Shown: positions 1,593 through 16,149 of the stretch, one piece after another | Layout: each line of letters starts with the position of its first letter | Position numbering within the stretch: position 1 is the first letter of the stretch | IMG/VR virus record: IMGVR_UViG_3300021400_000219 | Coordinates: 121,970 to 139,573 of that record | Length of the DNA stretch: 17,604 bases | DNA from: a virus | Direction: 5' to 3' (one strand) | Program-made: the position numbers and the translations under genes | Notes under the pieces: generated by a model | Database searches by the model: none | What the model saw: only the letters and a program-made list of their open reading frames with translations | Told to the model about the DNA's origin: nothing

Positions 1593-1621
1593 AGTATAAC
1601 AGATAGGGCCGTATTTGTCAA
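1593..1621 (-). promoter_or_regulatory. sigma-A/70-type promoter, class A upstream module
   Basis: Minus TTGACA-N17-TATACT (TGT-extended); drives the ~300-nt transcript carrying the two mini-ORFs. Confidence 0.7.
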
Positions 1622-1713
1622 GGGGTTTTTGAAAAAAATTTAATGGAATTTTCTGGAAGTTGCGCCCGGGCGCGTTAGCCTAAGCTAACTCCCAGATAAA
1701 GGGAAAGCGGGGA

Positions 1714-2082
1714 TTACTCCCCGCTAACCGCCTTGAAATAGGTGGTGCGCTTCTCCTGCACCTTCTCCACAGTGCCAGCCTCAACCATCTGCCGAAGCAG
1801 AGCCGAAGCCCACTGGGAGGACTTGCCAAAGTTGGCACCCACATCCTTAGCCTGCCGCAGGAGGTTGGGGTCCTCCATCAGGAAATCCAGAATCTGGACC
1901 TTGAACCCCTCGTTCTCCAGCTGCTTCTTGGAAGGCTTGCGCTCACCCTTGGAGCTGTTGCGCTTCTGGTAAGAAGCCTTGCAAGCCTCCAGCTTCTCCA
2001 CAACCTCAGCATCGAAGTTGTTGCGGGACAGGAAGTCAATGGCGGAAGTCAGAGCGTCCACATAAGTCATCTTGGTAGCCAT
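1714..2082 (-). CDS. winged-helix-like small DNA-binding protein, paralog family 1 (subtype a)
   Basis: 122-aa ORF; ATG 2082 after AAAGGA SD. The C-terminus ...SSQWASALLRQMVEAGTVEKVQEKRTTYFKA looks like a recognition helix plus wing. Paralogous to 7440..7805, 4399..4761 and 9645..10019. Confidence 0.9.
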   Translation of the reverse strand: MATKMTYVDALTSAIDFLSRNNFDAEVVEKLEACKASYQKRNSSKGERKPSKKQLENEGFKVQILDFLMEDPNLLRQAKDVGANFGKSSQWASALLRQMVEAGTVEKVQEKRTTYFKAVSGE

Positions 2083-2132
2083 AGTATCAATCCTTTCTGG
2101 TTTGGGAGGTTTTCCTTCCTCTTTATGTATTT

Positions 2133-2161
2133 ATTGTATCACAGGTTTGAGGGTTTGTCAA
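2133..2161 (-). promoter_or_regulatory. sigma-A/70-type promoter (gene-proximal of a tandem pair)
   Basis: Minus TTGACA-N17-TACAAT (TGA-extended), with an A/T-rich UP-like tract upstream; serves 1714..2082. Confidence 0.75.
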
Positions 2162-2232
2162 GACCTTTTTTTGATTTTTTTGAAAATCTTTTTTCGGCCT
2201 TGGCCGTTGTCCCTCTCCCTTGGAACAATTAT

Positions 2233-2261
2233 AGTATAGCAGAAGGGGGGCCAAAAGTCAA
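2233..2261 (-). promoter_or_regulatory. sigma-A/70-type promoter, class B (GGTTACA repeats upstream)
   Basis: Minus TTGACT-N17-TATACT (TGC-extended); GGTTACAATTTGGTTACA at 2282-2299; distal partner of 2133-2161. Confidence 0.65.
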
Positions 2262-2321
2262 TTACAAAGTAGAAACAAAATGGTTACAATTTGGTTACAG
2301 GCGCCCGGGCGGAAAACTGCA

Positions 2322-2597
2322 TCAAGCGTGATGCAATTTTCCATCAACGACATAAGTTATACTTTCAAGGCCATCATACTCATCAATTTCCCAGTCGGTA
2401 CAGTTGTCAGGAAGGTCTACCATCACAAGGTTTGCGGTGTAGCCAGAAATATCTTTAGAACCATACTCGTGCATTAACATGATTAAACGCTCATCAGTGC
2501 GTTCAATCATGGCGTAAGGATGTTTCAGACCCAGCTTGTTACAAGCCATAGGAGAAAGAGAAAAACCACCATAGCATTTATTCAACACAATCTTCAT
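2322..2597 (-). CDS. hypothetical protein (91 aa)
   Basis: ORF track; ATG 2597 after AAGGAGG SD. The stop lies inside the hairpin TTGCATCA-N4-TGATGCAA. Confidence 0.85.
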   Translation of the reverse strand: MKIVLNKCYGGFSLSPMACNKLGLKHPYAMIERTDERLIMLMHEYGSKDISGYTANLVMVDLPDNCTDWEIDEYDGLESITYVVDGKLHHA

Positions 2598-2628
2598 TTG
2601 AAGTTACCTCCTTCGTTTCTGTAATTAT

Positions 2629-2657
2629 AATATACCACAGTATTCGCTAATAGTCAA
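2629..2657 (-). promoter_or_regulatory. sigma-A/70-type promoter, class B
   Basis: Minus TTGACT-N17-TATATT (TGG-extended); GTTACATTTTGGTTACA at 2658-2674. Confidence 0.65.
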
Positions 2658-2698
2658 GTTACATTTTGGTTACAGAAATGCCCGGGCGCTTCACTGCG

Positions 2699-2839
2699 CT
2701 AAAGCAGTGAAGAACGCCATTTTATTTTCCAGCAATACCAAAACTTAAAAATATTATACGGTTTTACCCCCATCAAATACGCCCCCTTTTTATGCACTTT
2801 ATACGCATCAAAAAACTTTCTTTCAATAATCTTTCTCAT
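2699..2839 (-). CDS. small basic, aromatic-rich protein (46 aa)
   Basis: Below the ORF-track cut-off. ATG 2839 lies 4 nt after the exonuclease stop, with AAGGGGG SD. Sequence MRKIIERKFFDAYKVHKKGAYLMGVKPYNIFKFWYCWKIKWRSSLL. The stop is in the loop of CTTCACTGC/GCAGTGAAG. Confidence 0.55.
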   Translation of the reverse strand: MRKIIERKFFDAYKVHKKGAYLMGVKPYNIFKFWYCWKIKWRSSLL

Positions 2840-2843
2840 TTAT

Positions 2844-3536
2844 TTATTCCCCCTTTAGAGCCTTTCTATAAACCTGAACTTTACGCCAGCAATTATAAGA
2901 AATAGAATCATCAAAATCAAGGCCAGATTTAATAATTTTCATGTAAATCTGTCTTTCAATGTCCACATCTTCAAGCCCTGTATGTTCTTCAATAAAATCA
3001 GTATTATTAGTGATAAATCTATACGCAATTTCTGCGCTAGTTTGTACGTTGCCACAATCAGAAATAAATCCGTTGCGTTCTGCATAGTTAATAAAAGCGG
3101 GGGTTTTCAAAATAGAACTGCAAGCCATGTTCCAGATGCAAAAATATTCAGTATTATAAGGGAAAAACCAGCGGATAAAAGAACAAGTGATAAAACGTGC
3201 ATCATTATTTGTGGCCCGCTTGTCAAAGCCCATATTATACGCCCCTACTTTATAGGCGTTATACTCTCTCATGTCCGCCCACAAAATACGCCGAATATTT
3301 AACAGCTTTTTCAGGGTTCTTTTACCCTCTTTAATCTGCTCCCAATACTGCGGAATCTTTTCCGCAAAATAAGCGTTCTGCATCATTTCCTTATCAAGGA
3401 AAATTTCAGCCACAACGAAAGAACGCTCGACCAAAATCTCACCAGTGGTATTATCCACAATCTGGTAGCCCACATCATAGGGCAAAGGCTGTTCCACACA
3501 GTTGGCAGTCTCAGTATCAATAATCAGAATATTCAT
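2844..3536 (-). CDS. DEDDh-type 3'-5' exonuclease (DnaQ-like fold)
   Basis: True start is MNILIIDTET at 3536; the upstream part of the 295-aa track ORF reads through the promoter. Motifs: IIDTET (ExoI), YNMGFD (ExoII), HTGLEDVD (ExoIII with His). Confidence 0.85.
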   Translation of the reverse strand: MNILIIDTETANCVEQPLPYDVGYQIVDNTTGEILVERSFVVAEIFLDKEMMQNAYFAEKIPQYWEQIKEGKRTLKKLLNIRRILWADMREYNAYKVGAYNMGFDKRATNNDARFITCSFIRWFFPYNTEYFCIWNMACSSILKTPAFINYAERNGFISDCGNVQTSAEIAYRFITNNTDFIEEHTGLEDVDIERQIYMKIIKSGLDFDDSISYNCWRKVQVYRKALKGE

Positions 3537-3591
3537 AGTATCAATTCCCTTCTTTTTTTTCTTGGGGTTTCTGACCCCCTCAACAATTATT

Positions 3592-3619
3592 ATTATAGCA
3601 GGTTTTTTGAAAATTGCAA
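3592..3619 (-). promoter_or_regulatory. sigma-A/70-type promoter, class C (TTGCACAA operator upstream)
   Basis: Minus TTGCAA-N16-TATAAT (TGC-extended); inverted repeat TTGCACAAAA (3629-3638) / TTTTGTGCAA (3651-3660). Confidence 0.6.
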
Positions 3620-3699
3620 GATGGTAAATTGCACAAAATGCGCAGGTAGTTTTTGTGCAAAATGCCGGGGCGCCCGGGCGGGAGTTAGCCGCAGCTAAC

Positions 3700-3834
3700 T
3701 CACCATGTATGCGTGTCAATGTATTCCACAAAATACCATGCAGGCATACAAAGATAATAAATACCTAACAGAAACAGGGCCGCAATAAGCTTAAAGGGAA
3801 ACAGAATATAATTTTTAATACGCTTTTTATTCAT
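3700..3834 (-). CDS. small single-TM protein (44 aa)
   Basis: Below the track cut-off. AAAGGA SD. Sequence MNKKRIKNYILFPFKLIAALFLLGIYYLCMPAWYFVEYIDTHTW. The stop abuts the GAGTTAGC/GCTAACTC hairpin. Confidence 0.6.
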   Translation of the reverse strand: MNKKRIKNYILFPFKLIAALFLLGIYYLCMPAWYFVEYIDTHTW

Positions 3835-3878
3835 TTTTATTTATCCTTTCTTTTGGAATAATAGGGGGCTTGCGCCCC

Positions 3879-4229
3879 CTACTTTCTTTTTTGCGTCAAT
3901 GTCAACTCAAACTTCTTTCCGTCAACCTCAAAAGCAATAACTCTTTCCTTGTTAGTGATTTCAAGGTTATCAACGGAGTTAGTCAGAAAGTTAGCAATTT
4001 CCGCAATCAAATGGCCTTTGGTTTCGTTGGGTTTTCTTTCCCTTTTGGTGAATTTGTAAGCCGTAGGCTTTCTGTCTGCCTGCCTTGCTTTCTTTTCCAC
4101 CTTTTTCTGTTCAGCCGTCAAGGGGAACGGGTCTGCGCCCTTGTCGATTTCTTTATCAGTGGCAATGATTTCCATCGCTTCCTGTTCAGAAATATCAAGG
4201 ACTTTCATCAGTCTTTCCTTTTGGTTCAT
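3879..4229 (-). CDS. hypothetical basic protein, paralog family 2
   Basis: True start MNQKERL at 4229 (AGGAAGGGG SD). 116 aa, paralogous to 9262..9615 over its full length (shared ...QADRK..AYKF.K.ERK.N..K...). Confidence 0.85.
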   Translation of the reverse strand: MNQKERLMKVLDISEQEAMEIIATDKEIDKGADPFPLTAEQKKVEKKARQADRKPTAYKFTKRERKPNETKGHLIAEIANFLTNSVDNLEITNKERVIAFEVDGKKFELTLTQKRK

Positions 4230-4253
4230 GGTATCACCCCTTCCTTGATTATT

Positions 4254-4282
4254 ATTATAAGGGATAGAGGGCCAAAAGTCAA
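4254..4282 (-). promoter_or_regulatory. sigma-A/70-type promoter, class C
   Basis: Minus TTGACT-N17-TATAAT; TCGTCAATTTGCAC motif at 4294-4307. Confidence 0.65.
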
Positions 4283-4361
4283 GATAAATTTGTTCGTCAA
4301 TTTGCACAAAAGTGGTTAGTATAGGCTAACCGCACCCGGGAGAGTTAGTGTGCGCTAACTT

Positions 4362-4392
4362 CCAGAAAAAGGAAAAGGCCCCACATGGGGCC
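4362..4392 (-). terminator. intrinsic terminator
   Basis: Minus GGCCCCA-TG-TGGGGCC (4377-4392) followed by TTTTCCTTTTTC; just 3' of CDS 4399..4761. Confidence 0.65.
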
Positions 4393-4398
4393 TAATCC

Positions 4399-4761
4399 TC
4401 AAATGTCCATGGCCTTGAAGTAGGTGACACGCTTGTCAACATACTTGTCAACCATGCCGTTGAGATACAGGGTGCGGAGCAGACCGCTCACCCGCTGGCT
4501 GGTAGCATCTGCCAGCTCAGGCACCCCAGCGCAAATCTCAGAGATGCGGAAACCCTTGTCCGAATCATCCCGCAGGAAATCCAGAATCTTGGAGCGAATG
4601 GCATCGTTTTCCACCTGCTTGGCGGAAGGCTTGCGCTCAGCCGTGGACTTCTTGGCAAAGCCCTCGGCAATCTTTTCCAGCTTCTCCCGCAGGGCAGTTT
4701 CCTCAGCAGGGACGAAAGTCAGGGCCATCTCAATAGCAGTCTTATTAGTCAGCTTAGTCAT
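4399..4761 (-). CDS. winged-helix-like small DNA-binding protein, paralog family 1 (subtype b)
   Basis: True start MTKLTNK at 4761; the track ORF extends through the promoter. The C-terminus GFRISEICAGVPELADATSQRVSGLLRTLYLNGMVDKYVDKRVTYFKAM is nearly identical to that of 9645..10019. Confidence 0.9.
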   Translation of the reverse strand: MTKLTNKTAIEMALTFVPAEETALREKLEKIAEGFAKKSTAERKPSAKQVENDAIRSKILDFLRDDSDKGFRISEICAGVPELADATSQRVSGLLRTLYLNGMVDKYVDKRVTYFKAMDI

Positions 4762-4830
4762 AGTATCACTCACTTTCTCCGTTTTAACGAGTTCGGCTCT
4801 CAATCTTTTGTTTTCCTTTACTGTACTTGT

Positions 4831-4988: not shown

Positions 4989-5037
4989 GATGGGATTTTG
5001 CACAAATTAGATTAACTTCTTTTGGTTAAAATGTCAA

Positions 5038-5066
5038 TAGACAAGCGCATGTTTTTGTGATAAAAT
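5038..5066 (+). promoter_or_regulatory. plus-strand promoter facing a GC-rich island
   Basis: TAGACA-N17-TAAAAT (TGA-extended) followed by TAGTGGGGGG. Its -35 overlaps a minus-sense TTGACA (GTCAATAGACA, 5033-5043). Confidence 0.5.
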
Positions 5067-5072
5067 TAGTGG

Positions 5073-5150
5073 GGGGTCTGCGCGCGGCGGCACCGGCCGT
5101 TATCGGGACGCGCGTGTGTGTGCGTGTGTCGCTTTAAAGAGCTAAAGCGC
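5073..5150 (+). ncRNA. candidate small RNA / GC-rich island, copy C
   Basis: Starts downstream of promoter 5038-5066. Sequence GGGGGTCTGCGCGCGGCGGCACCGGCCGTTATCGGG...GCTTTAAAGAGCTAAAGCG, homologous to 14045-14135 and 16951-17045. Contains a 22-nt alternating purine-pyrimidine run at 5108-5129. The 3' end is unknown. Confidence 0.3.
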
Positions 5151-5170
5151 CCGGGAGAGTTAGCGAGGGC

Positions 5171-5458
5171 TTACCCCTCGCTCGTATCTACTCCCAGAAT
5201 AATCAACAGACTACAGATAGTGCCCCACGCATGGACGCCCATGTCCTCAGGGATTGCATCCCACACATCAGGATACAGACGGCGCACACCAGAGAGAAGC
5301 ATCCCGCCCCAGTTACCACCGCAAGCGGTACACAAGTCAAGGAAATCTTTAAAACTCATTTTAGTTTTCTGCGCCATGCACGCATAGACAACAACTTCAT
5401 CGCCCCACTCGTTCCGCACAGTATCAAGGGCTTCCATGAAATCAGAATGAAGAATCAT
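5171..5458 (-). CDS. hypothetical protein (95 aa)
   Basis: ATG 5458 overlaps the upstream stop as ATGA. Begins MILHSDFMEALDTVRNEW...; the stop is in the loop of AGCGAGGG/CCCTCGCT. Confidence 0.85.
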   Translation of the reverse strand: MILHSDFMEALDTVRNEWGDEVVVYACMAQKTKMSFKDFLDLCTACGGNWGGMLLSGVRRLYPDVWDAIPEDMGVHAWGTICSLLIILGVDTSEG

Positions 5459-5601
5459 CTTGCACACTCCTTTCTCAAATCAGCTTTCAGATGGTGGCGA
5501 GCCATCCGCCGACAACTTCTCTTAATGTTTCTGTTGGAATAGGAATCAGTCCAGTAACGCCCACGGCGCAGACCCACACTCTTAGCCTTGAAGTTATTCA
5601 T
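5455..5601 (-). CDS. small Arg/Lys-rich protein (48 aa)
   Basis: True start at 5601 after GAGGGAGGAAC SD. Sequence MNNFKAKSVGLRRGRYWTDSYSNRNIKRSCRRMARHHLKADLRKECAR. Below the track cut-off once the promoter read-through is trimmed. Confidence 0.7.
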   Translation of the reverse strand: MNNFKAKSVGLRRGRYWTDSYSNRNIKRSCRRMARHHLKADLRKECAR

Positions 5602-5631
5602 TGCTTTGTTCCTCCCTCTTGGATTGTCTAT

Positions 5632-5660
5632 AGTATAGCAGATAATCAGGGATTTGTCAA
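5632..5660 (-). promoter_or_regulatory. sigma-A/70-type promoter, class A
   Basis: Minus TTGACA-N17-TATACT (TGC-extended). Confidence 0.75.
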
Positions 5661-5716
5661 TACTTTTGGACAAAAAAGTTTAAGGAAATATTTTCCAGGG
5701 CCCGGGCACTTGGAAA

Positions 5717-5995
5717 TTACTCCCAAGTCCCTTCCAGATAAAGCTGGATAATTCTAGTAGCCATTTTCTTGGGCTCCAGCATAGTCACGTCATCCTCATC
5801 CCAAGGGAACTGATAGGATTCAACCATTCCCTTGTCACTCCCATAGGTACCAGCATGACAAGCAACATCACCTTCATGCCAAGGGAAACGCAACTGCATC
5901 CCTTCAAAAATAGGATTAACAGTGAAAGGAACGCTTGCAAAAGTCAGGCAGGCAATCACAGCATTAATAGCATCAGTATACTTGTTAGTGAACAT
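5717..5995 (-). CDS. hypothetical protein (92 aa)
   Basis: True start MFTNKYT at 5995 after AAAGGAGGAAC SD; the stop is in a GUAA-type hairpin loop (5708-5728). Confidence 0.85.
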   Translation of the reverse strand: MFTNKYTDAINAVIACLTFASVPFTVNPIFEGMQLRFPWHEGDVACHAGTYGSDKGMVESYQFPWDEDDVTMLEPKKMATRIIQLYLEGTWE

Positions 5996-6025: not shown

Positions 6026-6054
6026 ATTGTACCACATGGTAAAGCATTTGTCAA
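6026..6054 (-). promoter_or_regulatory. sigma-A/70-type promoter, class A
   Basis: Minus TTGACA-N17-TACAAT (TGG-extended). Confidence 0.75.
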
Positions 6055-6115
6055 TAGGTTTTTCAAAAAAATTTAATGGAATTTTTTTCCAGTTACCCGG
6101 GCGTGTGCTGGAAAT

Positions 6116-6295
6116 TTATTCCAGCACTTCCACCTCTTCCCAATCCCAAAACTCTTCATTAGGATTCCAGAATGTGGCAAAATCATCACATTCATCAATG
6201 GCAGAAACTCCCAGTTTACAGCGTCCATCCTTTTCCCAGTAGGGACAATCCCAGCCGTTGACAGTGCAGTAAATAACCATTCTTTTTTCTTTCAT
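6116..6295 (-). CDS. small acidic Cys-containing protein (59 aa)
   Basis: Missed by the track (59 aa). ATG 6295 overlaps the stop of 6292..6504 as ATGA. Sequence MKEKRMVIYCTVNGWDCPYWEKDGRCKLGVSAIDECDDFATFWNPNEEFWDWEEVEVLE. The stop is in the GTGCTGGAA/TTCCAGCAC hairpin. Confidence 0.7.
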   Translation of the reverse strand: MKEKRMVIYCTVNGWDCPYWEKDGRCKLGVSAIDECDDFATFWNPNEEFWDWEEVEVLE

Positions 6296-6504
6296 TGTAT
6301 CACTTTCCTTTCTTCAAGTTCACAATCTTCACGAGTCATTAGATAATCAAACTCTTTCAAGCACTCATAGTTTCCCGCAAGCGCATACTCTACAATATCT
6401 CTTGCAGTAGTCCAAGCAATGTAGTTTTCAGCATCGCAATGGTCAATCCTTGCATCAAAGATGTGGCGCAGGGTATCCACAATTTCAGACGAGATAATAT
6501 ACAC
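6292..6504 (-). CDS. hypothetical protein (70 aa, GTG start)
   Basis: ORF track; GTG 6504 lies 6 nt after GGAAGGTGA, and an in-frame TGA lies just upstream. Confidence 0.75.
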   Translation of the reverse strand: MYIISSEIVDTLRHIFDARIDHCDAENYIAWTTARDIVEYALAGNYECLKEFDYLMTREDCELEERKVIQ

Positions 6505-6553: not shown

Positions 6554-6582
6554 AGTATAGCACAGCAGAGGGTCTTTGTCAA
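6554..6582 (-). promoter_or_regulatory. sigma-A/70-type promoter, class A
   Basis: Minus TTGACA-N17-TATACT (TGC-extended). Confidence 0.75.
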
Positions 6583-6647
6583 TACTAAATTGAAAAAAAT
6601 TTGATGGAATTTTTGGAAATGTTTTCCAGTGCCCGGGTGATGGTGAC

Positions 6648-6974: not shown

Positions 6975-7002
6975 AGTATACCACAAATTATCCAAAAGTC
7001 AA
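6975..7002 (-). promoter_or_regulatory. sigma-A/70-type promoter, class B
   Basis: Minus TTGACT-N16-TATACT (TGG-extended); GTTACAATTTGGTTACA at 7003-7019. Confidence 0.65.
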
Positions 7003-7041
7003 GTTACAATTTGGTTACAAACACCCGGGCGCGAAGGTGAC

Positions 7042-7281
7042 TTAGTCACCCTCATTCGTCTTCATTGGAAACAGGTCGTCCAGATTGGTAACACCTGGAA
7101 TAAATTCAGTAATAAAAGAAAAAGGTCTTGCTTCTGCCAATTCTACGTTGTCAATGTCCCACACATCATCAAAGGCTTCTTCGCACGGCGGGCGTAATCC
7201 CTTCCAAAATTTGGTTTCTGCTTCCTCTGCGGTTTCCGCTTCAATCATGCAATAACCAGAAAAATCAATGTACCATTTCAT
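7042..7281 (-). CDS. small strongly acidic protein (79 aa)
   Basis: ORF track; AAAGGAG SD. 19 D/E versus 6 K/R by count. The stop is in the GGTGAC-TTA-GTCACC hairpin. Confidence 0.85.
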   Translation of the reverse strand: MKWYIDFSGYCMIEAETAEEAETKFWKGLRPPCEEAFDDVWDIDNVELAEARPFSFITEFIPGVTNLDDLFPMKTNEGD

Positions 7282-7321: not shown

Positions 7322-7350
7322 AGTATAACACTTCACAGGGCATTTGTCAA
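7322..7350 (-). promoter_or_regulatory. sigma-A/70-type promoter, class A
   Basis: Minus TTGACA-N17-TATACT (TGT-extended). Confidence 0.75.
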
Positions 7351-7439
7351 TAGAAAATTGAAAAAAATTTAATGGAATTTATTCCCATTTACCCGGGCGC
7401 GTTAGCTGCTGCTAACTCTGGAAGAAAAAGGAAGGGGGA

Positions 7440-7805
7440 TTACTCCCCCTTCACCTGGAAGCGGCTGACCCGCTTCTCCACAACCTTCTCCACGGTTCCA
7501 GCTTCTACCAGCTGGCGCAGAAGGGCGGAAGCCTGCTGGCTGGAAGAGAGTTCCAGTTCGGCGGCTACTTCCTTCGCCTGCATAGGCTCGTGGTCAGTCA
7601 GCAGTTCAACGATGCGGGCCTTGATACCCTCGTTTTCAATCTGCTTCTTGGTGGGCTTGCGCTCGCCCTTGGACTTGGAAGCGTTCCGCTTCTCATAGCT
7701 GGCCTTGCAAGCAACCAGCTTTTCCATGGCTTCCTCGTTGAAGTCAGCGGGCAGGGAAGCAATAGCCATTTCCAGAGCCTTCACATAAGTCATCTTGTTA
7801 GTCAT
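7440..7805 (-). CDS. winged-helix-like small DNA-binding protein, paralog family 1 (subtype a)
   Basis: True start MTNKMTYVKAL at 7805. Collinear with 1714..2082 (EKLxACKASYxKRN..KGERKP.KKQ.ENEG..., ...ASALLRQ.VEAGTVEKV.EKR). The stop is in the GUAA loop of AAGGGGGA/TCCCCCTT. Confidence 0.9.
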   Translation of the reverse strand: MTNKMTYVKALEMAIASLPADFNEEAMEKLVACKASYEKRNASKSKGERKPTKKQIENEGIKARIVELLTDHEPMQAKEVAAELELSSSQQASALLRQLVEAGTVEKVVEKRVSRFQVKGE

Positions 7806-8018: not shown

Positions 8019-8047
8019 ATATTACCACAGGTTGCTCCATTTGTCAA
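8019..8047 (-). promoter_or_regulatory. sigma-A/70-type promoter, class A (distal tandem)
   Basis: Minus TTGACA-N17-TAATAT (TGG-extended). Followed by two ~37-nt tandem units GTCGGGTG..CACCTAAAAAA (about 7925-8010). Confidence 0.6.
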
Positions 8048-8117
8048 GGGTTTTTTCAAAAGTTTTTTCTGGAATTTCTACCAAGATTTTCCAGCGACCC
8101 GGGCGAGTTAGCGGGGG

Positions 8118-8495
8118 TTAACCCCGCTTGTACTCTTTAGTGCCCATAGAGTAAGGAATGTTGTACATCTCACAAGCTTCAATGGCGTACCCGATTGCCA
8201 GATTTGCCATTTCCTGGGCTTGCTCATACTTTCTGTTAGGGGTAATCTTGTAAAGAAAATGGTCATTCTGAACCTGTTCAAACAAGTAGGACATTTTCAG
8301 TCGTGCATGAGCTTCGACGGCAAGCCGCTCAGATTTGGTAGCTTTTGGCATTTTAATCCATGCTAAACACTGAAAATGTTCATTCTGTCTGATGCTGGAA
8401 AGACGCTGTGCTGGGGTGTCTTTGCCAGTTTCACCCAGCTTGAAAACACCATTCTTACGGCAGAAATAATTAAAACCAGTATAAAAGCAAGCCAT
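8118..8495 (-). CDS. T5orf172 / GIY-YIG-superfamily-like domain protein (125 aa)
   Basis: ORF track. GVFKLGETGKDTPAQRLSSI plus ERLAVEAHARLK fits the KIG-T...R...L / E..LH pattern of T5orf172 (MUG113) domains as I remember it; not verified by search. Confidence 0.8.
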   Translation of the reverse strand: MACFYTGFNYFCRKNGVFKLGETGKDTPAQRLSSIRQNEHFQCLAWIKMPKATKSERLAVEAHARLKMSYLFEQVQNDHFLYKITPNRKYEQAQEMANLAIGYAIEACEMYNIPYSMGTKEYKRG

Positions 8496-8559: not shown

Positions 8560-8588
8560 AGTATAGCAGATAGGAATGGATTTGTCAA
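8560..8588 (-). promoter_or_regulatory. sigma-A/70-type promoter, class A
   Basis: Minus TTGACA-N17-TATACT (TGC-extended). Confidence 0.75.
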
Positions 8589-8649
8589 TACCTTTTTTCA
8601 AATTTTTTAATGGAATTTTTTTCCAGTTGCCCGGGCGCAGGAGTTAGCA

Positions 8650-8955
8650 TTAGCTAACTCCATTTTCTTCCAGACAAAATTCAAAACTCAAATCTTTTAC
8701 CACTTTTTGGGAAATGTATTCACGCACAAGGAAAAGCTCTAAATCTCTAGCCTGCTCCTCTACATAGCTACGGCGCAAATCGCGCACAGTGGAAAGATTT
8801 ACCATCGGGTATTCCATAGGATAACCACGCGCAACCACAATTACATTGTAAAGATTTTCCACGGGGTTCACCCTCATTCTCTTTTTCTTCTGGAATTTAT
8901 TGGTTTTATTGCGTTCAACTTTCGTTCTAAATTCTTTCATTTTTGCCTTGCTCAT
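8650..8955 (-). CDS. hypothetical protein (101 aa)
   Basis: Start MSKAKMKEF at 8955 overlaps the upstream stop as ATGA. The stop lies in the loop of the GGAGTTAGC-N4-GCTAACTCC hairpin (8640-8661). Confidence 0.8.
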   Translation of the reverse strand: MSKAKMKEFRTKVERNKTNKFQKKKRMRVNPVENLYNVIVVARGYPMEYPMVNLSTVRDLRRSYVEEQARDLELFLVREYISQKVVKDLSFEFCLEENGVS

Positions 8956-9119
8956 GAGAACACACCCCCAAAATGAAGCACCCAAAATAAACAACAAACC
9001 CCACTCATTGCCATTTCAATATACAAAACAGGGCGGTAATTATCCTCGGCAGTATCCAGCTCTTTCCAGCTCCAAAGGAAAATCACCATTAGCACAATCG
9101 CAATAATCAAATCTTTCAT
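8952..9119 (-). CDS. small membrane protein (55 aa, two hydrophobic segments)
   Basis: True start MKDLIIAIVLMVIFLW at 9119 after AGGAGG SD. Confidence 0.7.
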   Translation of the reverse strand: MKDLIIAIVLMVIFLWSWKELDTAEDNYRPVLYIEMAMSGVCCLFWVLHFGGVFS

Positions 9120-9151: not shown

Positions 9152-9180
9152 AGTATAACAGATGGGAGAGGATTTGTCAA
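9152..9180 (-). promoter_or_regulatory. sigma-A/70-type promoter, class A
   Basis: Minus TTGACA-N17-TATACT (TGT-extended). Confidence 0.75.
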
Positions 9181-9261
9181 TACCTTTTTTAGAAAAATTT
9201 ACTGGAAATGTTTTCCAAGTGCCCGGGCGGCGCTTTAGCGCACTGAAGCGCTAAAGCATCC

Positions 9262-9615
9262 TCACTTTCTGGGGGCTGATAATACTACTTTGTATTTAGT
9301 ATTTTCAAACGTAAAAATAAACTCTCTTTCTACGTTGGTTATTTCTAACGCTTCCCCGCCATTTTCATTTATTGCGGTTGTGAGAATATCCATTATTGCG
9401 CGTTTTGCGTTGTTTGCTTTACGTTCCTTTTTGGGGAATTTATAAGCGGATACTTTGCGGTCAGCTTGACGCATTTTTTTTGCTACTTTCTGTTGTTCAG
9501 AATTTAACTCAAAAAGTTTTGCCCCGTGGTCTATTGCATCATCATCAGCTAATACTTGTTTAGCTTCTTCCTCTGTCAAATCTAATACCTGCATTAAATG
9601 TTCGATTCTCTCCAT
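9262..9615 (-). CDS. hypothetical basic protein, paralog family 2
   Basis: 117-aa ORF; ATG 9615. No promoter between it and 9645..10019, so it is operonic. Confidence 0.85.
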   Translation of the reverse strand: MERIEHLMQVLDLTEEEAKQVLADDDAIDHGAKLFELNSEQQKVAKKMRQADRKVSAYKFPKKERKANNAKRAIMDILTTAINENGGEALEITNVEREFIFTFENTKYKVVLSAPRK

Positions 9616-9644: not shown

Positions 9645-10019
9645 TTAAACCCCCTCACCCATGGCCTTGAAATAAGTAATGCGCTTATCTACGTACTTAT
9701 CTACCATTCCGTTCAGGTAGAGCGTCCGCAGAAGTCCGCTCACCCTCTGGGAAGTCGCATCGTTCAGAGCGGGAACACCTGCGCAGATTTCAGAGATACG
9801 GAAACCTCTGTCCACATCTTCCCGCAGGAAATCCAGAATTTCCGCACGGACGGCGTCGTTCTCTGCCTGCTTTGCGCTAGGCTTGCGGGGAGCGGTGTTC
9901 TTCTTAATGGCCTGTTCCTTCATCTTCTCCAGCTTTTCCACAACATCCGTCATGTCAGCGGGAACGTAGGACAGAGCAACTTCCAGAGCCTTAACAGTAG
10001 TCATCTTATTGGTAGCCAT
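9645..10019 (-). CDS. winged-helix-like small DNA-binding protein, paralog family 1 (subtype b)
   Basis: True start MATNKMTTVKAL at 10019. The stop is in the palindrome GGGGGTT-T-AACCCCC. Confidence 0.9.
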   Translation of the reverse strand: MATNKMTTVKALEVALSYVPADMTDVVEKLEKMKEQAIKKNTAPRKPSAKQAENDAVRAEILDFLREDVDRGFRISEICAGVPALNDATSQRVSGLLRTLYLNGMVDKYVDKRITYFKAMGEGV

Positions 10020-10891: not shown

Positions 10892-11341
10892 TTAAAGACC
10901 TCCCAGAACTTCAAGAATATTATTTACATCATAGGCATTTCCGCCTGCATTATTCCATTCAATTCTATTTCTTTCTTCATCATCAAACAGGATGCCGATT
11001 TCATTTACTACGGTACTTTTGGGGGTGCCATAGGAAACAATTTTCACATCATCAAAATGGACGCTTGCCAGATGTTTTTTTAACCACATCTTTTTTGCTT
11101 CTGTTACAACCTTGTTGTAATCGGGGTTATCTTCCTTAGAGAGCCAAGAGACAACACCAATTTTCCATCCAAGGGCCTGTAACTTGTTCAGCTTGTGGGC
11201 CAGCGCAGAAAGCCGAATCAGGGGTTTTGCGATTTCATAGGGAAGGGGATTTCTCTCAATTAGATAGGAGAGCCAATTTTCCACGCCATACAGATCGGCA
11301 ATAGTCCCATCCATGTCGAAATAAATAGCCTTGTTCATCAT
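10892..11341 (-). CDS. HAD-superfamily hydrolase, 5'(3')-deoxyribonucleotidase (NT5C)-like, paralog 1
   Basis: True start MMNKAIYFDMDGT at 11341 (or 11338). DMDGT is HAD motif I (DxDxT). Roughly 60% identical by eye to 15023..15487. Confidence 0.85.
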   Translation of the reverse strand: MMNKAIYFDMDGTIADLYGVENWLSYLIERNPLPYEIAKPLIRLSALAHKLNKLQALGWKIGVVSWLSKEDNPDYNKVVTEAKKMWLKKHLASVHFDDVKIVSYGTPKSTVVNEIGILFDDEERNRIEWNNAGGNAYDVNNILEVLGGL

Positions 11342-11959: not shown

Positions 11960-11988
11960 ATTATAAGCGATGTTTTGCGATTTGTCAA
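11960..11988 (-). promoter_or_regulatory. sigma-A/70-type promoter, class A
   Basis: Minus TTGACA-N17-TATAAT. Confidence 0.7.
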
Positions 11989-12046
11989 GGGGTTTATGCG
12001 ATTTTTCTTCTGGAATTTTTTGGTTATGGCGCCCGGGTGGCTGGCC

Positions 12047-12697: not shown

Positions 12698-12727
12698 TTT
12701 TTTTTACTTTCAAAACACTTTTTTTAA

Positions 12728-12910
12728 GTTAGCAGTTAGCAAAGGGTAATGCTAGTTAGCACAAGCTAATTGTTGTTAGTTCGAACTAACTCCGGTTAGC
12801 AGGGACTAACTGGAGTTAGCCTAGGCTAACTTTAGCACACTAAAGCTGTAGCGATTTAGCGAACTAAAGTGCGCCGGACCTGGCAATTTGAACAATTAGC
12901 GGCTGCTAAC
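12728..12910. repeat. tandem array of 8 TTAG(C)-loop-(G)CTAA mini-palindromes
   Basis: Hairpins or palindromes at 12737-12754, 12755-12769, 12775-12790 (GTTAGTTCGAACTAAC), 12795-12810, 12814-12831 (AGTTAGCCTAGGCTAACT), 12830-12845, 12855-12868 and 12896-12909. Confidence 0.85.
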
Positions 12911-13192: not shown

Positions 13193-13463
13193 ATCGGGGG
13201 GAAGCTTGACGCCCTTCCCTGGCGGTGGTGTCCACTTTCGGGGACACGCCCGGCTCCGTTTGCTAGCCGCAGGAGCGTCGCGGCGCTGGGGTCGTTCCCT
13301 TGCCCCTTGGGGAACTTGATGGCCTCCATTTCTATCCCGCGGCCTTGGGGGCGGCCTAGCTACTTTGTGGGGAGTATCGCCCACGTTTCGCCGACGCGGC
13401 TGGGATTTTGGTGTCATCGCGCATCCCGTGCGCTCAAGAGGGACAAGTCAACCTCTTTTCTAT
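13166..13463 (-). ncRNA. candidate ~300-nt GC-rich structured non-coding RNA
   Basis: Runs from promoter 13470-13498 to the intrinsic terminator GAGGC-N8-GCCTC plus T7 (13168-13192). No SD-preceded ORF. Many local hairpins, e.g. GUGUCC-CCGAAAGU-GGACAC and GGGAAG..CUUCCC. Confidence 0.4.
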
Positions 13464-13469
13464 GGTCTT

Positions 13470-13498
13470 ATTATAGCACCCGCAAGGGGTTTTGTCAA
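13470..13498 (-). promoter_or_regulatory. sigma-A/70-type promoter driving the non-coding transcript
   Basis: Minus TTGACA-N17-TATAAT (TGC-extended); an A13-containing UP-like tract upstream (plus-strand T run 13509-13521). Confidence 0.7.
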
Positions 13499-13540
13499 GG
13501 GTTTTTTCTTTTTTTTTTTTTGTTCCCGGAGGGCCGGGGC

Positions 13541-13699
13541 TTAGTAGCCCCAGCCGATGGAGGTTACCCTCCATCCCTCCTCCCGCAGTGCGGGATAAAG
13601 GGCGGCGAAACTCGCCAACCCGTGTTCCCACACACGGGACTCACAGGCCCACAGGCCAGTGAAGAGGTTCCGATGGAACCGGATGTATTCAATTTTCAT
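13541..13699 (-). CDS. hypothetical protein (52 aa)
   Basis: True start MKIEYIRFHRNLF at 13699 after AAAGGAGG. The stop is in the GGGGCT-N4-AGCCCC hairpin. Confidence 0.6.
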   Translation of the reverse strand: MKIEYIRFHRNLFTGLWACESRVWEHGLASFAALYPALREEGWRVTSIGWGY

Positions 13700-13729
13700 G
13701 GAAGTGACCTCCTTTGTTTTACTGTAATC

Positions 13730-13758
13730 ATTATAGCAGACCCGCCCGGGTTTGTCAA
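13730..13758 (-). promoter_or_regulatory. sigma-A/70-type promoter (gene-proximal tandem)
   Basis: Minus TTGACA-N17-TATAAT (TGC-extended); CCCGGG lies within the spacer. Confidence 0.7.
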
Positions 13759-13924
13759 CCCTTTTTTTCATTTTTTTTATTTTTTTTTGGTTCCCCATAC
13801 CCCTCCGGGGAACCACTGGCCGGCTATTTTTTACCTCCCGCCCTAGGGGGTGGCCCTTGGTACTTTGTGGGGTATCTTGCCCACGTTTCCCAGAGGGAGG
13901 GCCCGGAGGGTTTCCCCTCCTGAC
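13759..13924 (-). ncRNA. candidate short GC-rich RNA between tandem promoters
   Basis: Starts after promoter 13931-13959. Contains GGAGGG-GAAA-CCCTCC and GGTTCCCC..GGGGAACC hairpins and a ~50-nt block homologous to 13341-13392. Confidence 0.3.
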
Positions 13925-13930
13925 ATGATT

Positions 13931-13959
13931 ATAATACCACAGGCCCGGCTAAAAGTCTA
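13931..13959 (-). promoter_or_regulatory. sigma-A/70-type promoter (distal tandem; back-to-back with a plus-sense TTGACA box)
   Basis: Minus TAGACT-N17-TATTAT (TGG-extended). Its -35 overlaps a plus-sense TTGACA in GTCTATTGACA (13955-13965). Confidence 0.55.
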
Positions 13960-14007
13960 TTGACAAATCTCACAAATCGGGATGTTCTATTTTGTGCATT
14001 TTTACTC

Positions 14008-14037
14008 TTGACAGCCGAGCCTATTTTGTGGTATAAT
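14008..14037 (+). promoter_or_regulatory. plus-strand promoter facing a GC-rich island
   Basis: TTGACA-N18-TATAAT (TGG-extended); the upstream CATTTTTACTCTTGACA is conserved with 16916-16944. Confidence 0.6.
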
Positions 14038-14044
14038 ATTTCTG

Positions 14045-14171
14045 TACTGCCTGCGCGCGCGGTCGCCGGCCGTTAGCGGGGGCTAACTGTGCCTGGGTGT
14101 GCGCCTTTATTGCAATAAAGCACTAAAGTGCACAAGGGCAAAAAACTACGAGGATTTTTTAATCCTCGTAG
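14045..14171 (+). ncRNA. candidate small RNA / GC-rich island, copy A
   Basis: CTGCGCGCGCGGTCGCCGGCCGTTAGCGGGGGCTAAC...GTGTGCGCCTTTATTGCAATAAAG... running into hairpin 14146-14171, which is shared with the convergent minus-strand gene. Confidence 0.3.
14139..14171 (-). terminator. intrinsic terminator containing the stop codon
   Basis: Minus CTACGAGGATT-AAAA-AATCCTCGTAG followed by TTTTTTG; the stop of 14159..14290 lies in the loop. Confidence 0.75.
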
Positions 14172-14290
14172 TCAATGGCGATGACCTTCCAGCCCTTGGG
14201 CGGTTCGTAGTTTTCCGGCAGGCCCTTCCAGAGAATCAATTCAGTATCGGCCCACTCTCCATCAATCTTTCTGATTTCAATGCTCCACAT
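14159..14290 (-). CDS. hypothetical micro-protein (43 aa)
   Basis: True start MWSIEIRKIDGEW at 14290 after AGAAAGGA; the conserved 5'UTR is shared with 1714..2082 and 17067..17294. Confidence 0.6.
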   Translation of the reverse strand: MWSIEIRKIDGEWADTELILWKGLPENYEPPKGWKVIAIDYED

Positions 14291-14342
14291 AATCTTTTTT
14301 CCTTTCTGGTTTGTTAGGTTTTCCTTCCCTCTTTCTGATTGT

Positions 14343-14371
14343 ATTATAGCAGACTCAACCGGGTTTGTCAA
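14343..14371 (-). promoter_or_regulatory. sigma-A/70-type promoter
   Basis: Minus TTGACA-N17-TATAAT (TGC-extended). Confidence 0.75.
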
Positions 14372-14385
14372 CCCCTTTTTCAAAT

Positions 14386-14529
14386 TTATTTAATTCTTTT
14401 TACTTTGATAACCTTAGCCCCAGAGTATTCAGCTTTTCCCTCTTTCAGAAATTTGCGGTTAGGATTGACAAGGGTGATGGTAGATTCTTCGCCGCAAAGG
14501 CTGATGGTAATTTCATAAATCTTTTTCAT
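14386..14529 (-). CDS. hypothetical micro-protein (47 aa)
   Basis: Below the track cut-off; AAAGGAAA SD. Sequence MKKIYEITISLCGEESTITLVNPNRKFLKEGKAEYSGAKVIKVKRIK. Confidence 0.6.
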   Translation of the reverse strand: MKKIYEITISLCGEESTITLVNPNRKFLKEGKAEYSGAKVIKVKRIK

Positions 14530-14562
14530 TTTTTTTCATTTCCTTTCCTTTTTTCTGTCTTT

Positions 14563-14591
14563 ATTATAGCATCGGCCGGGCGATTTGTCAA
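14563..14591 (-). promoter_or_regulatory. sigma-A/70-type promoter
   Basis: Minus TTGACA-N17-TATAAT (TGC-extended). Confidence 0.75.
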
Positions 14592-14609
14592 CCCCTTTTT
14601 TGAAATTTT

Positions 14610-14756
14610 TTAGGGAAATTTATCTCTCCCTAAAAAACAATCCCGCATAAATTCCAACTGTTCCAGAGAAAAGCGGGCCGCAAATTGTGCGGGCGTCTCT
14701 TCAAAGAGATGGTATCCGTTGGCAACCATTTCCATTACAACTTCCAGCTTTTTCAT
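14610..14756 (-). CDS. hypothetical micro-protein (48 aa)
   Basis: True start MKKLEVVMEMVANGY at 14756 after AAAGGAGGAAC. Confidence 0.65.
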   Translation of the reverse strand: MKKLEVVMEMVANGYHLFEETPAQFAARFSLEQLEFMRDCFLGRDKFP

Positions 14757-14786
14757 TTTGTGTTCCTCCTTTGTTTTTGTACCTTT

Positions 14787-14814
14787 ATTATACCATACTT
14801 TTGGCAAATGTCAA
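14787..14814 (-). promoter_or_regulatory. sigma-A/70-type promoter (gene-proximal tandem)
   Basis: Minus TTGACA-N16-TATAAT (TGG-extended). Confidence 0.7.
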
Positions 14815-14923
14815 GACCTTTTTTCAATTTTCTTTTGGTCTTTGCGGGTCCGACCCCCGCACCCTCTGAAGGGCTGTTGTCGGCTTGGAGGTCCTTCCTA
14901 CTGGGACCCCGTCCTTGATTATT

Positions 14924-14951
14924 ATTATAGCAGATAATAGCCAAAAGTCAA
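14924..14951 (-). promoter_or_regulatory. sigma-A/70-type promoter, class B (distal tandem)
   Basis: Minus TTGACT-N16-TATAAT (TGC-extended); ATTACA 14951-14956 and GGTTACAAT at 14961-14969 and 14983-14991. Confidence 0.6.
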
Positions 14952-15022
14952 TTACAAAATGGTTACAATTTTATTTCAGAATGGTTACAATTTGCGCCCG
15001 GGCAAATGGGAAAAAGAGGGAA

Positions 15023-15487
15023 TTACTTCCCTCTCGCCCATGTCAGAACGTCCATAATCATTTCAGGATTGAAGGCCCAACCTTCCATTTCTTCCCACTC
15101 AATCACATTGTTTTCTTCATCGTCAAACAGAATCCCATTTTTCACGGTGGGCACTGTGCTTTTGGGCGTCCCATAGGGAACAATGTTGATTTCATCAAAG
15201 TGAACGCTTGCAAGGTGTTTCTTGAGCCAATTCTTTTTGGCTTCAATAACCTTTTCGTCAAATTCCTTGTTGCTATTCTTAGCTAACCAACTAACTACCC
15301 CGATTGTCCATCCCTTTTTCTGAAGGTTATTCAACCGACGGGCAAGGGCGTTCATGTTTACCAGAGGCTTAGCAACTTCATAGGGGAAGGGATTGTTTTC
15401 CAGTAGATAACCCAGCCAGTTTTCTACGCCGTAGAAGTTGGCGATTGTTCCATCCATGTCAAAGTAGATTGCCCGATTGATTTTCAT
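15023..15487 (-). CDS. HAD-superfamily hydrolase, 5'(3')-deoxyribonucleotidase (NT5C)-like, paralog 2
   Basis: 154-aa ORF; AAAGGAG SD; contains YFDMDGTIA. The stop is in the GUAA loop of AGAGGGAA/TTCCCTCT (15015-15034). Confidence 0.9.
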   Translation of the reverse strand: MKINRAIYFDMDGTIANFYGVENWLGYLLENNPFPYEVAKPLVNMNALARRLNNLQKKGWTIGVVSWLAKNSNKEFDEKVIEAKKNWLKKHLASVHFDEINIVPYGTPKSTVPTVKNGILFDDEENNVIEWEEMEGWAFNPEMIMDVLTWARGK

Positions 15488-15518
15488 TTTGTTCAGCTCC
15501 TTTTCTTTTTCTGATTAT

Positions 15519-15546
15519 AGTATACCACAAATTCCGGGATTGTCAA
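15519..15546 (-). promoter_or_regulatory. sigma-A/70-type promoter (divergent partner of 15591-15619)
   Basis: Minus TTGACA-N16-TATACT (TGG-extended). GTCAAGAG (15543-15550) and CTCTTGAC (15588-15595) form a long imperfect palindrome. Confidence 0.7.
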
Positions 15547-15590
15547 GAGTTTTTTTCAAAAAAATCAAAAAACTTTTTTCAAAAAACCTC

Positions 15591-15619
15591 TTGACAAATT
15601 GAAAAAACTGTGATACAAT
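15591..15619 (+). promoter_or_regulatory. plus-strand promoter followed by a T19 tract
   Basis: TTGACA-N17-TACAAT (TGA-extended), then AAAGGGGGAATTA and T19. Confidence 0.6.
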
Positions 15620-15632
15620 AAAGGGGGAATTA

Positions 15633-15651
15633 TTTTTTTTTTTTTTTTTTT
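15633..15651. repeat. homopolymer T19 (A19 on the gene strand)
   Basis: Counted directly from the sequence. Confidence 0.95.
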
Positions 15652-15652
15652 G

Positions 15653-15688
15653 GTTAGCTTAGGCTAACTTAGGTTAGTATGTGCTAAC
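15653..15688. repeat. two TTAGC-type mini-palindromes
   Basis: GTTAGC-TTAG-GCTAAC (15653-15668) and GTTAG-TATGTG-CTAAC (15673-15688), followed by CCCGGGCG at 15691. Confidence 0.8.
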
Positions 15689-15705
15689 TACCCGGGCGCA
15701 AGAAA

Positions 15706-16026
15706 TCAGCCCTTGGGCTGATTCTCGCAAGCCTTTTTATTATTGTTCAGGGTTTTCATTAAAGACTTGGGGCACTTTTCGCAGTTGTGGCAATTCTTGT
15801 AAATGCTGATTCCCTGACTAACAGTTGCGATAAACATTGTTACCAGATTGTTAGTAGTTGCATTGTATACAATCACAATCCCCTTTTCAGTGAGAACAAC
15901 CTTGCCATCGTTGTTGTCGTAGGTTTCTGCGATTGCAGGCCCAAACTCGCCCTTGCAATAGTCGATGATGTAGGAAATTCTTTCCATCCTCTCAACCTTG
16001 GCGTGATAACTGACTTTCTTTGTCAT
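15706..16026 (-). CDS. hypothetical protein (106 aa)
   Basis: True start MTKKVSYHAK at 16026 after AAAAGGGG (the track uses an upstream TTG). The stop lies in the 3' arm of AATCAGCCC/GGGCTGATT. Confidence 0.85.
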   Translation of the reverse strand: MTKKVSYHAKVERMERISYIIDYCKGEFGPAIAETYDNNDGKVVLTEKGIVIVYNATTNNLVTMFIATVSQGISIYKNCHNCEKCPKSLMKTLNNNKKACENQPKG

Positions 16027-16058
16027 TTTTGACAACCCCTTTTCTTATTTTCTGACTA

Positions 16059-16087
16059 AAGTATAGCACACATTCCCGCAGTTGTCA
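16059..16087 (-). promoter_or_regulatory. sigma-A/70-type promoter, class A (degenerate)
   Basis: Minus TTGACA-N17-TATACT (TGC-extended). Confidence 0.75.
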
Positions 16088-16149
16088 ATACCTTTTTTCA
16101 AATTTTTTCAGATTTTTTTGAACCGGGCGAATGGAAAAAGCTGGAAGTG

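Follow-up and report, generated by a model that had tools for sequence, protein, structure and literature searches.

Why should one block of sequence recur in front of so many promoters of a single virus? The question is raised by a stretch of 17,604 nucleotides of viral DNA (positions 121,970 to 139,573 of IMG/VR record IMGVR_UViG_3300021400_000219), which was analysed at its full length and is called the window below. It carries a dense array of about 35 small open reading frames (ORFs) on the minus strand, and almost every ORF is preceded by a near-consensus housekeeping promoter, TTGACA-17-TATACT or TATAAT with a TG extension. An initial annotation had described a conserved module of about 55 bp (class A) at ten of these promoters and had read it either as a mobile or recombinogenic element or as the binding site of a common regulator. 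We propose, with a probability of about 0.6, that the repeated block supplies small early-gene cassettes with their operator and promoter, as the front half of self-contained units that are both exchangeable and co-regulated. Comparison with natural variants showed that cassettes are exchanged, lost, and rearranged among related phages with exact joins at a 10-bp palindrome, CGCCCGGGCG, which forms the outer edge of the module.

The class A module

At all ten coordinates the block lies directly upstream of the -35 on the minus strand, and eight copies are solid (Table 1). The copy at 11988 is partial, with a weak A/T tract and no TG extension, and is missed by our class A profile, while the copy at 16088 is degenerate; the latter is better classed as a box-less joint with an UP promoter, like that of the relative L246 described below, than as class A. 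The module is also longer than had been reported. Similarity runs on through the spacer and the -10 (TTGACAAAT...ATCTGYTATACTATA), so that about 80-90 bp are shared, in three layers: an UP-like tract with the promoter, a class A box, and a palindromic joint.

The promoter layer is common property of the array. The window holds 87 promoter-like sites compared with 32.4 +/- 6.6 in shuffled sequences, and nearly every one of consensus grade lies on the minus strand with the TG extension. The bacterial UP element has the Estrem/Gourse consensus AAAWWTWTTTTNNAAAA; the tract AAATTTTTTTGAAAAA of copy 6054, at about -55 to -40, fits this consensus at 15 of 17 positions. The A/T tract is UP-like in position and in consensus, as had been suggested, but every promoter of the array has it, and it is not what sets class A apart. 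In the proximal 20 nt beside the -35, identity is 0.61 among class A copies and 0.55 between class A and the box-less promoters of class D; in the distal 25 nt the corresponding values are 0.55 and 0.34.

What defines class A is a palindromic box of 15 bp, TGGAA-N5-TTCCA, whose promoter-proximal TTCC always begins 27 nt before TTGACA. In a set of 137 distinct promoters from the phage group, 29 have TTCC at this offset and no other offset is used more than five times. The pattern TGGRA-N5-TYCCA was observed eight times against an expectation of 0.66 (maximum 4 in 200 shuffles), and five of the eight palindromes begin 9-10 nt after the start of CCCGGG. A profile trained on eight copies gives these same copies 29-50 bits, which is circular; copies outside the training set, from variant contigs, score 27-44 bits, and the maximum in 2.1 Mb of unrelated viral DNA pre-selected for partial matches is 16.4 bits. 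The inverted repeat noted at the outset stands as the class A box, with exceptions: in copy 1621 the two TTCCA pentamers form a direct repeat, TTCCA-N5-TTCCA, copy 11988 has a half-site only, and copy 16088 has none. Within the modules the proximal half-site is invariant and the neighbouring positions drift; changes in the left half (TGGTA, TGGGA) occur with no compensating change. These features argue for a constraint on the sequence of the box rather than on its structure.

A palindromic joint shared by three promoter classes

The joint is common to classes A, B, and C. There are 22 CCCGGG sites in the window, and the pattern CCCGGGY has 40 matches on both strands when 3.1 are expected; the 15 kb of flanking DNA has no CCCGGG, which is uninformative since only 0.3-0.5 sites are expected there at 32% GC. 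A stem of at least 6 bp lies upstream of 19 of the 22 sites, at a distance of 2-11 nt in 17 cases and of 17 and 25 nt in the other two, and the mean folding energy of the joint hairpins is -12.7 kcal/mol, compared with -6.9 for random 44-mers. The hairpin sequences vary (GTTAGC-N4-GCTAAC, GGTGAC-TAA-GTCACC, CTGGAA-TAAAT-TTCCAG, and others). The TAA stop of the upstream gene is often found within the loop, as in the hairpin at 6105..6127, which ends 3 nt before CGCCCGGG. Classes B and C have other boxes in the same setting, and we infer that they are sets parallel to class A.

Cassette exchange among natural variants

Variant contigs of the same phage are mosaics of the window; L001 and L003 match it at 98.5% identity, and L004, L005, L275, L289, L316, and L341 match it in blocks, at 82-97%. 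When the 40 nt on either side of every CCCGGG were clustered, eight gene-end clusters proved to have two or more promoter modules as partners, and five promoter modules two or more gene ends. In every case the switch falls at CGCCCGGGC, and some switches exchange class A for class B. The 3' end of gene 7440-7805, for example, is joined to A7350 in the window, to another class A module in L004, and to class B modules in L005, L275, and L289, and the B2261 module, identified by its right-flank cluster, stands behind five different gene ends in the variants.

Whole cassettes are also gained or lost. The cassette at 2312..2688 is absent from L005, and the crossover of this indel lies within the 9-nt CGCCCGGGC, with the bases on either side coming from different parents. 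L005 has in addition the two cassettes flanking B7002 in swapped order, and in L004 another sequence follows the upstream block of A8588, the fusion lying at the -35. Ends of homology blocks fall within 12 nt of CCCGGG in 10 of 48 cases, compared with 6.8% expected for random non-coding positions (binomial p ~0.001, for events that are not all independent). Chimeric assembly is an unlikely cause of these patterns because the same variants were recovered by separate, independent assemblies and because assembler k-mers are far longer than 10 bp. The suggestion of a mobile or recombinogenic element is borne out to this extent by the reassortment in the variant contigs; the moving unit, however, is the whole cassette (box, promoter, gene or genes, and 3' hairpin), and its exact joint is the CGCCCGGGC(G) palindrome, which classes B and C share and which is thus not peculiar to the class A block.

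Distant relatives

Scanning of metagenomes with CCCGGGN{3,4}TGGAAAANNNTTCCA returned 97 stretches, of which ten loci score on the class A profile. The same pattern found only two chance matches in IMG/VR, and none of its 69 matches in GTDB genomes scores on the class A profile, so no prophage or host copy is present among the species representatives. The looser patterns CCCGGGN{2,3}CTGGAAAA and AATTCCATTAAAWWWTTT gave only single chance matches among the matches listed.

Three of these ten loci, L300, L312, and L268, have no nucleotide homology to the window in their genes and still show the layout hairpin, CCGGGCG, box, A/T tract, TTGACA. Some of their boxes contain TTCCA, and elsewhere other palindromes (TTGTTAA..TTAACAA, TGGTAAAAATTACA) take its place. 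L246, at 63% protein identity, has a terminator followed by CCCGGGCG, the UP tract, and the promoter, with no box, and L247 reads ATAATATATT..CCGGGC..AATATATTAT. CCGGGC is retained in relatives at 54-63% protein identity; in lower-GC relatives CCCGGG is absent and the class C box and UP tract are kept. CCGGGC is thus an old, conserved feature, and the boxes adjoining it are specific to lineage and class. Because in L246 it is placed after the T-tract of the terminator, CCGGGC would act at the DNA level. The distinct boxes of the relatives point to operators that co-evolve with paralogous DNA-binding proteins.

Candidate regulators and proposed mechanism

The window encodes four winged-helix paralogues of 120-124 residues. 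In their AlphaFold2 model (predicted local distance difference test score, pLDDT, 87.6), a pair of helices at the N terminus precedes a winged helix in the C-terminal half, which Foldseek matched to ArsR/SmtB/MarR proteins with probability 1.0 and a root-mean-square deviation of 1.1-1.7 A over about 60 residues. Metagenomes contribute 794 members to the family, and many of these have winged-helix Pfam matches. Each of the four genes lies behind a box-less class D promoter, with a box-bearing promoter 100-151 nt further upstream. Assignment of paralogues to box classes through these tandem promoters was tried and rejected, as the gene of wH3 lies behind class A in the window and behind class B in L289 and L316. 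The earlier idea of a common regulator site is thus consistent with the phased palindromic box, the lineage-specific boxes, and the winged-helix paralogues encoded nearby, but no specific binder can be assigned because the pairing of paralogue and box class changes between variants. The four paralogues are the best candidates for box-binding proteins.

A mechanism can be outlined from these parts. Along the gene strand, a unit runs from the stable 3' hairpin of the previous cassette through the joint, the box (placed ten nt after the first C of CCCGGG), and a full UP-like tract to the extended -10 promoter; this anatomy and the reassortment at the joint are seen directly in the sequences. Host RNA polymerase with its housekeeping sigma factor would fire the class A promoters unaided, the box would serve as an address label, and one dimeric DNA-binding protein would switch the eight or nine class A units together. 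The core promoters of class A need little improvement, being near-consensus, and for this reason shut-off by the regulator, or modulation of the contact between the C-terminal domain of the polymerase alpha subunit and the UP tract, is favoured over activation. The circuit may have two tiers, in which box-less promoters make the regulators and these then act on classes A, B, and C. The joint, together with the module homology that flanks it, would permit cassettes to be deleted, inserted, and reordered with their transcription units intact; microhomology combined with selection, cleavage of a cruciform or hairpin, and a dedicated enzyme are candidate routes for recombination at the joint.

Alternative explanations

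Several observations weigh against an operator at the head of exchangeable cassettes. A simple dimeric operator would not usually have a left half-site that changes its position and orientation, as this one does. A homology of 10 bp is short for ordinary homologous recombination, and the variant breakpoints are not all independent events. The Pfam winged-helix matches of the window paralogues are below gathering thresholds, and the pairing of box class with the wH3 gene is unstable. One alternative, compatible with an operator, would make the box secondary and take the hairpin plus CGCCCGGGCG as a dedicated, integron-like recombination site, the target of a nuclease, resolvase, or recombinase. 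It would account for exact reassortment at a 9-10-bp palindrome even between otherwise unlike modules, for hairpins that abut the joint with conserved structure and variable sequence, for the persistence of CCGGGC in diverged relatives, and for the frequent contig ends at these junctions. We still hold it to be unlikely. The 34 kb in which gene content was examined (out of a 174-kb contig) contain no recombinase or nuclease gene, integron core sites are unmatched, and no circular cassette contigs were found (one poly-A artefact aside, no short contig had terminal overlaps, in metagenome assemblies that are a poor test of mini-circles); moreover, homology-driven exchange with selection for intact units could give equally sharp edges. 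The stronger proposal that the early region is a virus-borne, integron-like platform, on which a dedicated enzyme recognises the hairpin and joint and the boxes assign captured genes to classes, is more doubtful.

We regard it as similarly doubtful that common descent alone explains the block, the copies being recent duplicates or gene-conversion products of one strong promoter, the TGGAA/TTCCA box having no function of its own, and the similarity arising as a side effect of recombination between cassettes. Cassettes demonstrably recombine, and both the exact runs of 23 nt found in some copies and the similarity that reaches through the spacer and -10, as in duplicated promoters, are what such a history would leave. 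Against this, the phased TTCC is kept in L268, L312, and L300 where the genes share no nucleotide homology, the half-site is invariant while adjacent positions drift, and parallel classes have other palindromes at the equivalent place. A role in RNA seems less probable again: TGGAA-N5-UUCCA with AUUAAAUUUUUUU would be a weak terminator or attenuator of upstream read-through and the supposed UP element its U-tract. Folding does predict a small hairpin just before a U-rich run in most copies, and the promoter-early stem-loop (PeSL) of T4-type phages likewise unites terminator and promoter (PMC2839356). The stem, however, is of just 5-6 A/U-rich pairs and the predicted hairpin is weak; it is impossible in copies 1621 and 11988, and left-half changes break the pairing with none compensatory, the right half showing no variation. 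The upstream side already has strong hairpins and true terminators, and in L246 the T-tract of the terminator precedes CCCGGGCG, so that the downstream block would rarely be transcribed. It is because of the phased, invariant half-site, the absence of compensation, and the variants that form no hairpin that a protein-binding site is favoured over an RNA structure. Finally, we give next to no credence to a generic UP-element similarity shared by all strong promoters of the phage, the outcome that the initial annotation had named as fatal to its module. The proximal 20 nt are indeed equally similar between classes A and D, but the class-specific distal 25 nt refute it, and the profile and phasing statistics agree.

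The phage and other features of the array

The window is identical to part of the 174-kb metagenomic contig ERZ28612966 scaffold_111. The small-gene array extends over about 21 kb with large genes at both borders, and most of its approximately 35 small ORFs have no Pfam or PHROG function, i.e. the region is rich in ORFans. In the flanking genes 7-9 TAG codons lie in frame, a sign of TAG-to-Gln recoding in the style of phAss-1; one of these genes encodes a double winged-helix protein of 204 residues that is Crp/MarR-like. As delimited, the ORFs of the window itself stop at TAA in 22 cases, TGA in 11, and TAG in 2. A 230-residue window protein has its closest relatives in phAss-1 and large Enterococcus phages. 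Because of the flanking TAG codons and this phAss-1-like protein, we group the phage with the phAss-1-type gut phages, which are TAG-to-Gln recoded and have Clostridia as predicted hosts (PMC10607447); it probably infects Clostridia. The window had no nucleotide match in INPHARED by megablast, no Rfam family at gathering thresholds, and no tRNA in a tRNA search. GC content is 42% in the early array and 32% in the flanking late regions. GATC is strongly avoided in the window (3 observed, 40-65 expected) and in the flanks L254 and L002 (5 observed, 36-46 expected).

Table 1. Coordinates and composition of promoter modules, cassettes, and selected genes (positions in the window unless a contig is named).
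Feature	Position	Strand	Composition	Context	Class A profile (bits)
A1621	1593..1672	minus	CGCCCGGGCG, direct repeat CTTCCAG-AAAA-TTCCAT, UP-like tract, TTGACA-17-TATACT		37
A5660	5632..5708	minus	GCCCGGGC, box TGGAAAATATTTCC, UP-like tract, promoter	upstream of ORFs 5455-5604 and 5171-5458	28.9
A6054 (best copy)	6026..6103	minus	CGCCCGGGTA, box TGGAAAAAAATTCCA, AAATTTTTTTGAAAAA, promoter; box starts 10 nt after first C of CCCGGG	precedes ORF 5717-5994	49.7
A6582	6554..6639	minus	palindrome TGGAAAACATTTCCA and extra phased TTCCAT	upstream of ORFs 6292-6504 and 6116-6295	32.8
A7350	7322..7399	minus	box TGGGAATAAATTCCA	upstream of ORF 7042-7281	41.5
A8047	8019..8105	minus	wide palindrome CTGGAAAAT-N8-AAATTCCAG	139 nt upstream of box-less D7908; both precede winged-helix gene 7440-7805	32.9
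A8588	8560..8637	minus	box TGGAAAAAAATTCCA	upstream of ORF 8118-8495	40.3
A9180	9152..9229	minus	box TGGAAAACATTTCCA	upstream of ORFs 8952-9119 and 8650-8955	43.1
A11988 (partial)	11960..12039	minus	CACCCGGGCG, phased proximal half-site ATTCCAG only		
A16088 (degenerate)	16060..16128	minus	terminator hairpin, GCCCGG, UP-like tract, promoter, no TTCCA box		
Class B	-35 at 2261, 2657, 7002, 14951	minus	CGCCCGGGCG joint, box of GTAACCA repeats		
B2261	2256..2312	minus	CGCCCGGGCG joint, box GTAACCAAATTGTAACCA		
B7002	6997..7032	minus	CGCCCGGGTG, then TTTGTAACCAAATTGTAAC, then TTGACT		
C11418	11413..11473	minus	CGCCCGGGCG, palindrome TTTGTGCAA-A-TTGCACAAA, then TTGACT		
Other class C copies	-35 at 3619, 4282, 4988, 10253, 12550, 13959, 16868	minus			
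Class D (box-less)	-35 at 2161, 4859, 7908, 10102, 13498, 13758, 14371, 14591, 14814, 15546, 16537				
Tandem promoters (D / box-bearing)	2161/2261 B, 4859/4988 C, 7908/8047 A, 10102/10253 C	minus			
Junction hairpin (example)	6105..6127	minus	GTGCTGGAATAAATTTCCAGCAC	loop contains the TAA stop of ORF 6116-6295	
Whole cassette	2312..2688	minus	class B promoter B2657, 91-residue ORF 2322-2597, hairpin	absent from L005	
Winged-helix paralogue 1 (122 residues)	1714..2082	minus			
Other winged-helix paralogues	4399-4761, 7440-7805, 9645-10019	minus			
TAG-containing flanking genes	L254:3666-4907, L002:14518-15132, L002:13794-14180	minus	in-frame TAG codons		

Some features of the array were noted in passing. 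The promoter of A1621 transcribes about 330 nt (1268-1592) with no long ORF, up to a strong terminator at 1292-1268. Behind it lie two mini-ORFs of 7 codons with good ribosome-binding sites, MYYSGFT (1423-1446) and MYPTGFI (1338-1361), and promoters 2261 and 6582 are likewise followed by the leader TTGTTCCAAGGGAGAGGG of this unit. The stretch 400-925, with which the array ends downstream, is A/T-rich and free of ORFs and contains three similar minus-strand promoters of another type (TTGATTTTNAAAAAAATTTTTGNTATAAT), and GC-rich repeats of the CGTGTGAGC type lie next to it at 930-1200. Two paralogous gene pairs are present on the minus strand: 10892-11341 and 15023-15487 encode HAD/5'-nucleotidase-like proteins, and 3879-4229 and 9262-9615 encode proteins of 116 and 117 residues, each just downstream of a winged-helix gene.

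On the plus strand, antisense to the gene array, are three paralogous units (5030-5175, 14000-14165, and 16908-17065), each with a good promoter and, downstream of it, a conserved segment that is GC-rich and about 110 nt long. These segments have alternating purine-pyrimidine runs (GCGCGCG, GTGTGCG) and share GTTAGC..GCTAAC and CTAAAG motifs with the junction hairpins; the units are candidate small RNAs, with no match to an Rfam family. GTTAGC occurs 31 times in the window on both strands, and at least six palindromes of the GTTAGC-N4-GCTAAC type stand in tandem at 12720-12850, where there is no ORF. This array may be a multi-site protein-binding region, for example partition-like or origin-like. 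Also on the plus strand, at 15591-15652 and 17433-17499, a promoter leads into AAGGGGGA and about 20-27 consecutive T; such runs are contig break points in other assemblies.

Comparison with known systems

Large phages have fast-turnover blocks of small early genes of unknown function, and how these genes stay expressible under shuffling is understood for only a few T4-type phages. There, regions rich in ORFans contain PeSL elements, which join a strong early promoter to an A/T tract and a stem-loop and mediate modular shuffling (Arbiol et al. 2010, PMC2839356; Comeau et al. 2014, PMC4122927). The array studied here is alike in its stable stem-loops, A/T-rich tracts, and strong sigma-70-type early promoters in many copies, in giving each cassette its own promoter and terminator, and in forming an ORFan-rich, plastic region where indels, replacements, and reordering between close relatives take place at the elements. 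The PeSL authors also reported GGGC/GCCC motifs involved in T4 deletions, to which the GCCC-GGGC held in the present joint may be compared. The differences are that the lineage is unrelated, being TAG-recoded and phAss-1-like rather than T4-type, that the stem-loop lies upstream of a distinct, sharp 10-bp joint, and that class-specific boxes, for at least three promoter classes, stand between the joint and the UP tract. Cassette mini-circles are a further trait of PeSL elements; none was seen among the short contigs here, in metagenome assemblies that test poorly for them.

For the box, a parallel in layout is provided by the SPbeta repeated element (SPBRE). Its prediction in silico preceded by decades the demonstration that one phage protein, the master repressor MrpR, uses it as operator (Kohm et al. 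2023, PMC10516654). In both cases one large Firmicute phage has a motif of about 15 bp in some ten of its intergenic promoter regions; it is the layout that is compared, not the motif sequence. The present system differs in having several box classes and recombination joints, and no MrpR-like protein was seen. The host-takeover module of Bacillus phage SPO1 is reported (Stewart et al. 1998) to have many small early genes in operons with their own sigma-A promoter and terminator. By that description it resembles the array as a block of small early genes of unknown function with a strong promoter for each operon; SPO1 is not known to have a shared palindromic joint or class boxes.

Two other candidates were rejected. 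Integron attC sites have RYYYAAC and GTTRRRY cores on either side of an imperfect palindrome, and the joint hairpins do not match these cores; the GTTAGC/GCTAAC stems are only loosely alike and many hairpins are unrelated. Nor do the units resemble integron cassettes, which are promoterless and lie next to an IntI tyrosine recombinase, as every cassette has its own promoter and no integrase family is represented among the called genes of the 34 kb. A sigma-54 promoter (TGGCAC-N5-TTGCW) needs an invariant GG and GC; the box lacks a GC dinucleotide, and its spacing is one nt short. Resemblances of the module to CodY boxes and to cre involve A/T sequence of low complexity.

In summary, the array is not a member of the PeSL or SPBRE families, and its joint and box classes are without a described counterpart. 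The joints give a sequence signature for cassette boundaries, by which candidate host-takeover and anti-defence genes could be found in metagenomes, and the boxes lead to testable predictions on temporal control in recoded phages, where early genes need the standard code. By analogy, the closest functional counterpart is the PeSL cassettes of T4-type phages, and a comparable solution appears to have been reached here in an unrelated, uncultured, recoded lineage, with a sharp 10-bp joint, a hairpin, and interchangeable operator boxes.

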